Assembly (NCBI GenBank): GCA_040755315.1
Contig: JBFMBF010000005.1
Location: 1-58,126, forward strand
Direction: 5' to 3'
DNA: 58,126 nt
Origin: Candidatus Hadarchaeota archaeon
GTDB taxonomy: Archaea > Hadarchaeota > Hadarchaeia > Hadarchaeales > Hadarchaeaceae
Positions 2,943 to 10,657 of the stretch are shown here, in pieces. Numbering within the stretch: position 1 is the first letter of the stretch; the number at the start of each line of letters is the position of its first letter. The notes under the pieces were generated by a model that searched no databases, was not told the origin of the DNA, and was given only the letters and a program-made list of their open reading frames with translations. The translations under genes and the position numbers were made by a program.

Positions 2943-2963
2943 AAAAATGAGCCCGACATGGCG

Positions 2964-2980
2964 GAAAACGCATTTATGAA
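2964..2980 (+). promoter_or_regulatory. BRE/TATA promoter of tRNA-Asn
   Basis: GAAAACG-CA-TTTATGAA about 30 nt upstream of position 3002. Confidence 0.55.
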
Positions 2981-3010
2981 GCAAGACTACATATTTTTGG
3001 CGCCGGGGGT

Positions 3011-3161
3011 GCCGGGGTTCCGCAAGGGCCCGACAGCTCAGTAGGTAGAGTACCCGGCTGTTATACCTGGTGTGGATGAAGAACGAACCTCAATAAAGGG
3101 GACGACACGCTTGGTTGCAGCAACCGGGTGGTCAGAGGTTCGAGTCCTCTCCCCGGCGCCA
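3011..3161 (+). tRNA. tRNA-Asn(GTT) with two introns (3019-3034 at 8/9; 3064-3122 at 37/38), CCA encoded
   Basis: Acceptor GCCGGGG/CCCCGGC-G-CCA; D arm GCTC..GAGT; anticodon stem CCCGG/CCGGG with CT-GTT-A; T arm AGAGG-TTCGAGT-CCTCT; BHB motifs at both introns; T-run follows. Confidence 0.88.
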
Positions 3162-3216
3162 TTTTTAAAACCCGAAAAGTTCAAGGTTACTAAAATCACA
3201 TGTATAACTGGATTTG

Positions 3217-4203
3217 ATGAAAATCCTGCTGCTGTCCAAGAGAGATGTAGAGAAGCTCATCTCTATGCGGGAGACCATTAAAGCTGTTGAAGAAGCCTTC
3301 CGCGCAAAAGGGCTGGACAGGGTCCAGATGCCCCCAAAGTCTTACGTTTATTTCAAGGAATACAATGGCGATTTTCGGGTGATGCCCGCATACCTCGAGG
3401 AAACGGGTGCCGCAGGAGTCAAGATTGTCAATGCCCATCCCAACAACCCAAAAAAATACGGTTTGCCGACTGTCATGGCGACAATGTTTCTTTTGGACCC
3501 GAGAACCGGCATCCCGCTGGCGATAATGGACGGTACATTGATAACAAACATGAGGACTGGTGCAGGAGGGGCCGTGGCGGCGAAACACCTTGCGCGGAAG
3601 GACTCGCGAGTGCTGGCCATGGTCGGGGCAGGGGTGCAAGCCAGGACACAACTGCTGGCGCTGGACGAGGTGCTTGAGATTGGGGAGGTCCGAGTCAACG
3701 ACTCTTCTTTGGAAAAATCCAAGCAGTTCTCGGCTGAGATGGGTAGGGAACTAGGCGTTGTGGTGAAGGCCTTTAAAAATACCAAGGATGCTGTCGTGGG
3801 CGCTGATGTTGTTGTCACAACTACCCCAGTCCGAGTTCCGATTTTGAAAGATTCGTGGATTTCCGAAGGGATGCACATCAACGCCATCGGGGCGGACGCT
3901 CCGGGAAAGCAGGAGCTTGAGCCGGAGATTTTGCTCCGCGCCAAGGTCGTGGTAGACGACATCGAACAGGCCATCCACGGCGGCGAAGTCAATGTTCCGC
4001 TCTCGAAGGGGGATATTTCTCGTGGCAACATCTACTCCGACTTGGGGGCGGTGGTCACAGGAAAAAAGGCTGGCAGAACTTCGGATGAAGAAATCACGGT
4101 CTTCGACTCTACGGGGCTGGCGGTCCAAGACATAGCAACCGACTGGGTAGTTTACAAAAAGGCGAAGAAGCTCGGAGTCGGGCGAGAAGTGGAACTCTTC
4201 TGA
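3217..4203 (+). CDS. ala: Alanine dehydrogenase, ornithine cyclodeaminase/mu-crystallin family
   Basis: GDFRVMPAY, GVKIVNAHPNNP, RTGAGGA, GAGVQA, INAIGAD, FDSTGLAVQD. Confidence 0.88.
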   Translation: MKILLLSKRDVEKLISMRETIKAVEEAFRAKGLDRVQMPPKSYVYFKEYNGDFRVMPAYLEETGAAGVKIVNAHPNNPKKYGLPTVMATMFLLDPRTGIPLAIMDGTLITNMRTGAGGAVAAKHLARKDSRVLAMVGAGVQARTQLLALDEVLEIGEVRVNDSSLEKSKQFSAEMGRELGVVVKAFKNTKDAVVGADVVVTTTPVRVPILKDSWISEGMHINAIGADAPGKQELEPEILLRAKVVVDDIEQAIHGGEVNVPLSKGDISRGNIYSDLGAVVTGKKAGRTSDEEITVFDSTGLAVQDIATDWVVYKKAKKLGVGREVELF

Positions 4204-9490: not shown

Positions 9491-10657
9491 ATGAAAATCC
9501 CAAAAAGAGCCGCCTACGCTGCGATAATCTCCCTGGGCATCGTCAGCCTGCTTGGTGATGTGGTCTACGAAGGCGCCCGAGGTTTGACACCCGACTACCT
9601 GAATTTCTTGGGGGCTTCTGCAACTGTACTCGGCATCGTCACAGGGCTGGGTGAGTTCATTGGTTATGGGTTAAGATTATTGAGCGGAATTTTCGTCGAC
9701 AGGACCCGGGCTTATTGGGCTTTCACCTTCATCGGGTACGGATTGATTGTGGCTATCCCACTACTGGCTTTCGCCGGAAGCTGGCAAATCGTTGCGATTT
9801 TCATACTTTCGGAGCGGCTGGGCAAGGCCTTTAGGTCGCCTGCCAGGGACGTGATCCTTTCGGTGGCCAGCCACGGCGTTGGCACCGGGAAGGCATTCGG
9901 CATCCATGAATTTTTGGACCAGATAGGCGCGGTGCTGGGTCCGATCATTTTGTTTGCGATAATGTTTTTGACAGCGGGGAATTACTCGCTCGCTTTCGCA
10001 TTCCTTACAATCCCATTCCTGTTGATGCTGTTTTTCCTCGTCAAGGCCTACCGCAGCATAGGGAACGTCTCAATCGACGGTAAGAAGAGCGACAAAGCAC
10101 CGCTTGAGGGCAATTTTTCCGCATACATCGGCGCAGTAGCCTTGAACACTCTCGGGCTTGTTCCAGTTGCAATACTGCTCTTCCGCGTTTCGGGTATCGT
10201 CCGGCCCCTTGGGCAGGCCTGGCTGGTGCCGCTGGTTTACGCTTTTGTCCAGCTTGTGGATGCACCGTCCGCCCTAGTTTCTGGCCACGCCTACGACAAA
10301 ACTAAAAGAAAAGTCCTGCTGCTCCCTTTTGCGATTTCCATCTTCCCCACAATGCTTGTAATGCTAACGAATAATTTAGCAGTGTTTTTGCTTGCAGCTG
10401 CAATTCTTGGATTGATCGAAGGCATGAGGGAATCTATTTACCGCGCGGCCGTGGCAGACATGACCCCGCTCGTGAGCAGGGGGAAAGCTTATGGGATTTT
10501 TCACACGGTGTACGCGGTCTGCATTTTGTTCAGCAGCATCATCTTTGGCGTATTTTTGGACCTGGGAGTCTCAATTCCACTGATAATTGTTTACATCTTG
10601 GTGACGCAGGTTTTGGCAATGGTGCTGCTTTCTAAATCTTTCCGAAAAATCAAATGA
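9491..10657 (+). CDS. MFS transporter
   Basis: About 12 hydrophobic segments; ERLGKAFRSPARD, GKAFGIHEFLDQIGA. Confidence 0.88.
   Translation: MKIPKRAAYAAIISLGIVSLLGDVVYEGARGLTPDYLNFLGASATVLGIVTGLGEFIGYGLRLLSGIFVDRTRAYWAFTFIGYGLIVAIPLLAFAGSWQIVAIFILSERLGKAFRSPARDVILSVASHGVGTGKAFGIHEFLDQIGAVLGPIILFAIMFLTAGNYSLAFAFLTIPFLLMLFFLVKAYRSIGNVSIDGKKSDKAPLEGNFSAYIGAVALNTLGLVPVAILLFRVSGIVRPLGQAWLVPLVYAFVQLVDAPSALVSGHAYDKTKRKVLLLPFAISIFPTMLVMLTNNLAVFLLAAAILGLIEGMRESIYRAAVADMTPLVSRGKAYGIFHTVYAVCILFSSIIFGVFLDLGVSIPLIIVYILVTQVLAMVLLSKSFRKIK

Follow-up and report, generated by a model that had tools for sequence, protein, structure and literature searches.

The window, i.e., the whole stretch of DNA analysed here (58,126 nucleotides), lies on contig C5 of a 1.21-Mb archaeal genome in 50 contigs (labelled G000). 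Between two of its protein genes (ORFs at 2124-2942 and 3214-4203) lies a tRNA gene, all of whose features are on the plus strand. ARAGORN detected no tRNA in the window sequence as it stands, and the Rfam tRNA model matched only positions 3035-3150 (model positions 9-63, 31.9 bits). The gene is a tRNA-Asn(GUU) gene with two introns, i.e., a 16-nt BHB intron between nucleotides 8 and 9 (8/9) and a 59-nt intron at 37/38. When both introns were removed in silico, ARAGORN returned a 76-nt tRNA-Asn(gtt) with a canonical cloverleaf.

In-silico splicing and ARAGORN define exon 1 (3011-3018), which comprises the acceptor 5′ strand GCCGGGG (3011-3017, nt 1-7) and U8 (3018). The 8/9 intron (3019-3034) carries an hBHBh′ motif that was read by hand and recurs in orthologs. 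Exon 2 (3035-3063), placed by the Rfam match and ARAGORN, runs from A9 to A37 and contains the D arm and the anticodon GTT (3060-3062). The intron at the canonical 37/38 position (3064-3122) appears as an insertion in the Rfam alignment, and its BHB was read by hand. Exon 3 (3123-3161, nt 38-76; sequence, Rfam and ARAGORN) includes the T arm (3134-3150), the acceptor 3′ strand CCCCGGC (3151-3157), G73 (3158) and an encoded CCA (3159-3161). Because oligo-T runs serve as terminators in archaea, the run of five T residues read at 3162-3166 is the likely transcription stop.

The 37/38 intron is conserved across the phylum, with a gene identity of 72-89% over 59 genomes. It contains GGATGAAGAACGAACCTC, and CGAACCTC (3084-3091) within it is complementary to the T arm of its own gene, GAGGTTCG (3135-3142); in relatives a terminal stem encloses this T-arm complement. 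Judged by its sequence, the intron looks like half of a C/D-box guide. A search of 2950-3200 with Rfam at a permissive threshold returned the tRNA match alone and no family for either intron. The idea that the intron guides Cm56 is weakened by the presence of a gene for Trm56 in the genome, since such a guide would then not be needed. An 8-nt direct repeat, GCCCGACA, occurs at 2951-2958, upstream of the TATA box, and at 3028-3035, at the 3′ end of the 8/9 intron; at such a length it is probably due to chance.

The original prediction had held that the splice signal of the 8/9 intron is built on acceptor nucleotides 1-6 and so cannot coexist with the acceptor stem, and the pairing scheme bears this out. 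The central helix of the BHB (3013-3016/3029-3032, 4 bp) uses acceptor nucleotides 3-6, and the outer helix h (3011-3012/3036-3037, i.e., G1-C11 and C2-G10) uses nucleotides 1 and 2. Two 3-nt bulges lie on opposite strands (3017-3019 and 3033-3035), with the splice sites inside them. Because the BHB takes acceptor nucleotides 1-6, the 8/9 splice signal and the acceptor stem are mutually exclusive. This anatomy was the same in all 24 tRNA-Asn orthologs that carry the intron, with a central helix of 4 bp in 23 and of 3 bp in one. Helix h′ comprised 2-5 bp in 23 of them and, on a strict count from the helix end, 0 bp in one (G055). Its arms, which are CC/GG in the window gene, varied in a compensatory manner across the orthologs (CC/GG, CCGC/GCGG, CTGC/GCAG, CCACC/GGTGG and CTGCA/TGCAG). 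The genome encodes EndA (PF01974, one gene, 112.7 bits, contig C30), RtcB (PF01139, 597.9 bits, contig C10) and a full-length RNase P RNA (RF00373, 182.4 bits, contig C11, 20624-20912).

A second copy of the acceptor 5′ strand lies just upstream of the gene. As had been claimed from the letters of the sequence, TGGCGCCGGGG (2998-3008) is the exact reverse complement of CCCCGGCGCCA (3151-3161), with 100% complementarity over 11 nt, and GCCGGGG occurs at 3002-3008 (copy 1) and again 9 nt downstream at 3011-3017 (copy 2, the real 5′ strand). Sequence, orthologs and predicted pairing with 3151-3157 all point to copy 1 as a spare acceptor 5′ strand, i.e., a putative placeholder or decoy for the 3′ strand. 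It is separated from the real 5′ end by the spacer GT (3009-3010), which varies among orthologs in both length (about 1-5 nt) and sequence. The exact 11-mer was found only at these two places in the window. The 7-mer GCCGGGG occurs 20 times in the window when both strands are counted, and from this frequency a second same-strand copy within 25 nt would be expected in roughly 0.4% of cases (an estimate). When tRNAs of the genome were paired with the leaders of other genes, none of 1220 mismatched pairings gave a 7/7 match, and 3 of 38 real tRNA genes, plus one with an overlapping copy, had a 7/7 copy within 25 nt.

The four nucleotides before copy 1, TGGC (2998-3001), are complementary to G73-C74-C75-A76. 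The 11-nt complementarity stands, but TGGC is not a special extension of the decoy; it is a generic tRNA leader motif of the genome, here adjoining copy 1 and not the real 5′ end. By our own count of 38 parsed tRNA genes of this genome, 17 have GG within -3 to -1 of the +1 position, often as GGT, and 28 encode CCA. This upstream GG or GGT is complementary to the CCA and often also to the discriminator, and could represent a leader-CCA helix or an initiator element.

Two other accounts of copy 1 were tried and rejected. Copy 1 might be the true 5′ end of a tRNA with a larger or a second intron, but no single excision places U8 after copy 1, the first base of the spacer varies (g, a or t), and ARAGORN started the spliced tRNA at 3011, i.e., at copy 2, even when the upstream copy was retained. 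Alternatively, EndA might remove the leader at a BHB formed by copy 1, spacer and copy 2, but the helix partner would then be nucleotides 72-75, which are mismatched.

The position of the promoter bears on whether copy 1 is part of the RNA. The original prediction had located a TATA element at 2973-2980, and when a motif was derived from 37 tRNA upstream regions in the same genome, its top site was a TATA-like box in the same place, at 2972/2973-2980. In the window gene the distance from this box to copy 1 is 29-30 nt, and in ordinary tRNA genes of the genome the distance from TATA to +1 is mostly 26-33 nt. In the four copy-bearing genes it was 25-30 nt to copy 1 and 31-39 nt to the real 5′ end. 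At orthologous loci with the same promoter, the promoter adjoins copy 1 if the gene bears the intron and +1 if it does not. Copy 1 sits at the usual +1 spacing, and in ordinary genes the +1 nucleotide is necessarily transcribed, so that copy 1 is very probably present in the transcript; judged by this spacing, the most likely start of the RNA is a few bases upstream of 3002.

To follow the leader element through the phylum, we searched 66 genomes with a leader-free tRNA-Asn query (3035-3161). The gene was found in 59 of them, and all 59 genes were inspected. Each of the 24 genes bearing the 8/9 intron had an upstream copy, complete or partial, compared with two of the 35 that lack the intron (G028 and G031, from one genus). 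The duplicate is thus co-conserved with the intron in related genomes, as had been anticipated, and the case named in advance as refuting the idea, i.e., a homolog with the intron that lacks the duplicate, did not occur among the 59 genes (0/24).

Eighteen of the 24 copies were exact GCCGGGG and six were variants, i.e., GCCGG (G001), GCCGGG (G017), GCTGGGA (G002) and GCTGGGG (G022, G043 and G053). In the four variants with T in place of C3 (G002, G022, G043 and G053), a C-G pair becomes a G-U pair and pairing with the 3′ strand is kept; the remaining variants lose the inner end of the helix only, and in G001 and G002 TGGC and the 5′ part are retained. Within the genus of the window TGGC is kept, so that the variants retain 9 to 10 pairs with the 3′ end; many relatives have no such CCA-covering extension. 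The copy was kept across the five families that carry the Asn gene (f1-f5), and the spacers and upstream flanks diverge widely among orthologs. The exact tandem pattern was found at 23 places in 22 of the 66 genomes, with 21 in tRNA genes and two in coding sequence, compared with three places for a reversed control pattern in the same genomes.

The copy and the intron are separated by 10-30 nt and are passed on together as one unit. Their state changed at least 4 and 5 times on the trees built from the two flanking genes, without clustering. With two contrasts per tree on well-supported branches, a sign test of intron against copy was not significant (p = 0.5). Because the supported contrasts are few, independent support comes from different tRNA families and not from the number of genomes; in addition, the acceptor sequences are invariant within each family, so that there is no covariation within families. 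Two further arrangements were seen among the tRNA-Asn genes: that of G060 has three introns (8/9, D arm and 37/38), and in several genera a D-arm intron alone is present instead of the 8/9 intron.

The same design was found in other tRNAs. The tRNA-Lys(CUU) gene on contig C21 of the window genome has a 9/10 intron and the acceptor strand GGGCCCG, and reads GGGCCC-GGGCCCG-TG-intron; a copy was present in 5/5 orthologs with the intron and in 0/10 without it. For tRNA-Met(CAU), with the acceptor strand GGGCCCG, the copy was present in 7/7 genes (six full, one partial), among them one on contig C3 of the window genome. A second tRNA-Met, with the acceptor strand GCCGGGG, combines the copy with an 8/9 intron in G038, and was detected through a weak Rfam hit. 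Weak Rfam hits whose introns lie in the D loop or T arm had no copy, nor had those lacking such introns. In a pattern scan of public genomes, which gave at least 120 matches, those listed were mostly chance occurrences in GC-rich bacteria; six among the matches listed were archaeal tRNA genes, and the list includes two tRNA-Met genes of the same design in Nitrosopumilales/Thaumarchaeota-titled records. Because this Nitrosopumilales-type pair was found via the copy pattern itself, it proves the existence of the design in that group and not its distribution.

A copy without a 5′-proximal intron occurs in tRNA-Glu(CUC) of the window genome and of G002, although half of the match is accounted for by the generic ..GGT leader. 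The former (contig C11, 3294-3384, minus strand) reads GCTCCGG-t-GCTCCGG, and the latter GCTCTGG-t-GCTCCGG. The tRNA-Glu genes of other genera have T-rich ..GGT leaders only, several of which could pair with the 3′ strand via G-U pairs.

Other unusual tRNA genes were noted in the window genome. On contig C3 (about 10305-10400, minus strand), a tRNA-Met gene combines a leader copy with two introns, one of them at 9/10. The 41 Rfam tRNA matches of the genome do not include this gene, indicating that the tRNA sets of these genomes are under-counted by standard scans. A tRNA-Met(CAU) on contig C12 (13008-13118) has an intron inside the 3′ acceptor strand (at about 68/69), whose BHB uses the 3′ strand of the T stem, and, in the anticodon loop, a long intron that carries the motifs GATGATG and CTGATT; no mirror-image copy of the 3′ strand was found in its trailer. 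On contig C8 (3377-3600, minus strand), a repeat of about 26 nt of the internal sequence of a long-arm tRNA lies about 100 nt upstream of the gene, in a region that also holds a further GCCGGGG. The repeat may be a remnant of a partial duplication or an integration site.

Precursors were folded in silico with and without the leader. With the native leader of the tRNA-Asn precursor of the window, pairing of copy 1 with 3151-3157 had a probability of 0.95-1.0 and the real acceptor stem one of 0.00, and the central BHB helix formed with probabilities of 0.07, 0.14 and 0.42 at 37, 65 and 80°C. When the leader was omitted, the real acceptor stem was restored (0.94-1.0) and the BHB helix fell to 0.001 or below. 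As natural controls we used the leaders of other tRNA genes (23-28 per gene); with 28 such foreign leaders, both the mean and the maximum probability of the Asn BHB helix were about 0. The Lys and Met precursors of the same genome behaved similarly, with BHB helix probabilities of 0.28-0.75 and 0.42-0.87, respectively, with the native leader, and at most 0.005 in each case without it. With 23 foreign leaders for each of these two genes, the mean was at most 0.018 and the maximum 0.26 (joint limits for Lys and Met).

Across the 24 Asn orthologs, the median probability of the BHB helix at 65°C was 0.41 with the native leader and 0.000 without a leader. It exceeded 0.05 in 19/24 orthologs with the native leader, compared with 0/24 without, and was 0.05 or less despite the native leader in the other five. 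The real acceptor stem had probabilities of 0.00-0.26 with the leader in the genes of the window genome, and of at most 0.49 in the 24 orthologs, compared with at least 0.94 without it. As the original prediction proposed, copy 1 thus holds the 3′ strand in the predicted folds and the BHB helix becomes accessible, whereas its probability in leaderless precursors is close to 0. When the 5′-proximal intron was removed, the predicted two-dimensional energies still preferred copy 1 over the real strand, by 1.0-11.3 kcal/mol. At 37, 65 and 80°C the differences were +11.3, +6.2 and +3.7 kcal/mol for Asn, +1.0, +1.5 and +1.7 for Lys, and +5.1, +3.5 and +2.8 for Met.

The reading that we favor, with a probability of roughly 60%, is that the spare copy in the leader acts at the RNA level as a helper, holding the 3′ strand of the tRNA and thereby freeing the real 5′ strand for the splice signal. 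That the leader sequesters the 3′ strand so that the 5′ strand can fold the BHB had already been suggested for this gene, and the orthologs, the other tRNA families and the predicted folding all support it. The precursor would start with copy 1 (3002-3008), after which come the 2-nt spacer and the real 5′ strand (3011-3017). That strand would be synthesized first, together with the 8/9 intron and the beginning of the D stem, and these could fold as the BHB. The 3′ acceptor strand would emerge about 130 nt later and pair with the free copy 1, with no invasion of the BHB, and in the genus of the window this pairing would continue over G73-CCA through TGGC. Copy 1 would in this way leave nucleotides 1-6 available for the splice signal. 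It may also tether the very short 5′ exon (8 nt and the leader) to the rest of the tRNA during cutting by EndA and ligation by RtcB, a role that we infer in addition to the decoy function originally proposed.

After splicing, the real acceptor stem would form, and RNase P would remove the leader together with copy 1 irreversibly. Because the energies after splicing favor copy 1, handing back the 3′ strand would need a minor conformer trapped by irreversible cleavage, tertiary contacts or a helper. The transcription of copy 1, its pairing in vivo, the order of events and the hand-back of the 3′ strand are steps that we infer from the sequence and its modelled folds. A broader version of this reading, to which we would give slightly less than an even chance, is that placeholder strands are general and obligatory, across several archaeal phyla, for introns that borrow the acceptor 5′ strand, acting as folding aid and tether, enforcing an order with splicing first and RNase P second, and limiting the sites at which introns can be gained.

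The arrangement could instead be an evolutionary scar, i.e., a duplicate left by the event that brought in the intron (for example, recombination with a fragment starting at +1 of an intron-bearing copy) and persisting by tight linkage, with no role in the RNA. The short distance between copy and intron, their joint changes of state on the flank-gene trees with few independent contrasts, and the existence of copies without an intron (Asn in G028 and G031, and Glu in G000 and G002) speak for a scar. One contiguous insertion cannot explain both features, but a single event could have brought two linked changes. Yet the copy has been kept in families f1-f5 while the spacer and flanks diverged, and its variants preserve pairing with the 3′ strand; four tRNA families, using two different acceptor sequences between them, share the design, as does a second group of phylum rank; an intron without a copy was found in 0/24 Asn, 0/5 Lys and 0/7 Met genes; and folding predicts no splice signal without the copy. 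Taken together, we regard a scar as improbable. A role for copy 1 solely as an element of the promoter in DNA, which would keep the gene's original first transcribed nucleotides at the normal spacing from TATA so that the promoter continues to work after the gene body has been displaced downstream, appears far less probable still. It would account for the spacing from TATA to copy 1, which equals the usual spacing to +1, and for the generic TGGN motif before copy 1. However, similar promoters in this genome precede ordinary tRNA genes with many different starting sequences, the copy always matches the acceptor strand of its own gene (GCCGGGG or GGGCCCG), and the tie to 5′-proximal introns would be left unexplained.

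A third alternative assigns copy 1 a role in the RNA, but a different one, i.e., a device for ordering or quality control that masks the 3′ end and the true RNase P site, and so blocks 5′ maturation, CCA repair or aminoacylation until the intron has been removed, or else one that solely tethers the 8-nt 5′ exon. The predicted loss of the real acceptor stem in the presence of the leader, the extension of the helix over G73-CCA in the genus of the window, and a 5′ exon of just 8 nt plus the leader are all consistent with this. On the other hand, the CCA-covering extension is missing in many relatives, and the identical pairing also enables the BHB; since this one pairing serves both masking and BHB formation, the two roles are not separable by computation. 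We consider masking as the main effect, or tethering as the only one, unlikely, to about the same degree as the scar.

The preferred reading, i.e., a leader strand that assists the splice signal, can be set against several known systems. Work by Marck and Grosjean in 2003 and by Sugahara et al. in 2008 reportedly deals with non-canonical BHB introns of archaeal tRNA genes. The intron studied here resembles such introns in being short, in lying outside the anticodon loop and in having two 3-nt bulges around a 4-bp helix; likewise, EndA would cut, RtcB would join, and the fold of the precursor must differ from the mature cloverleaf. Non-canonical BHB introns of archaeal tRNA genes are established (PMC4090602), and numerous disrupted tRNA genes are noted in Hadesarchaea (Kaneta et al., 2018; PMC5829648), but the accessible portions of these two papers say nothing of a leader element that captures the displaced acceptor 3′ strand. 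Here, all 8/9 and 9/10 introns that we inspected come with such an element.

Split and permuted tRNA genes have complementary leader and trailer sequences, according to the accessible portions of the papers that describe them (PMC4090602, PMC3978253 and PMC4033280). As in those genes, a GC-rich sequence outside the mature tRNA would pair in the precursor, enable splicing by EndA and then be discarded. In split and permuted tRNAs, however, the helix of leader and trailer belongs to the BHB, and EndA excises the two sequences, as far as these portions go. In the present gene the leader would pair with the mature 3′ acceptor strand, outside the BHB, and another enzyme, presumably RNase P, would have to remove it. 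Where the spacer meets copy 2, the sequence allows no 4-bp helix with two 3-nt bulges, so that a leader-trailer BHB of the split or permuted type is not present, and, unlike in those arrangements, the exons are collinear within one gene. What is present is a leader complement to the acceptor 3′ strand, a few nucleotides upstream of a gene whose BHB uses acceptor nucleotides.

Transcription attenuators and riboswitches work through mutually exclusive helices. The present case is like them in that one strand has two possible partners and the choice would decide the fate of the RNA, but there is no ligand or ribosome, and the switch would follow the order of synthesis, splicing and irreversible cleavage. 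In Thermofilum pendens, outliers in promoter distance reveal odd tRNA genes (Chan, Cozen and Lowe, 2011; PMC3218864, accessible portions). There, as here, extra transcribed sequence is revealed by a mature 5′ end that lies unusually far from the promoter; in T. pendens this sequence is, by the same portions, the 3′ half of a permuted gene, and here it is a 7-nt acceptor repeat plus a spacer. Full-text searches of openly available papers turned up no account of a leader-encoded copy of the acceptor strand. We regard the element as a probable accessory cis-element within archaeal tRNA splicing and not as a new pathway.

An intron next to or within the acceptor stem creates a conflict, because its splice signal and the mature stem depend on the same bases. 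If the preferred reading is correct, a leader element that settles this conflict would amount to a new cis-acting step in the maturation of tRNA; it would explain how such genes work, and it would predict a fixed order of processing with specific intermediates. Because standard tRNA finders miss or truncate such genes, the leader copy could serve as a diagnostic mark for them. If the broader version holds as well, the copies in genes without an intron would represent a permissive state that precedes the gain of an intron or, alternatively, would have been left after loss of the intron through an intermediate that was spliced but unprocessed at its 5′ end.
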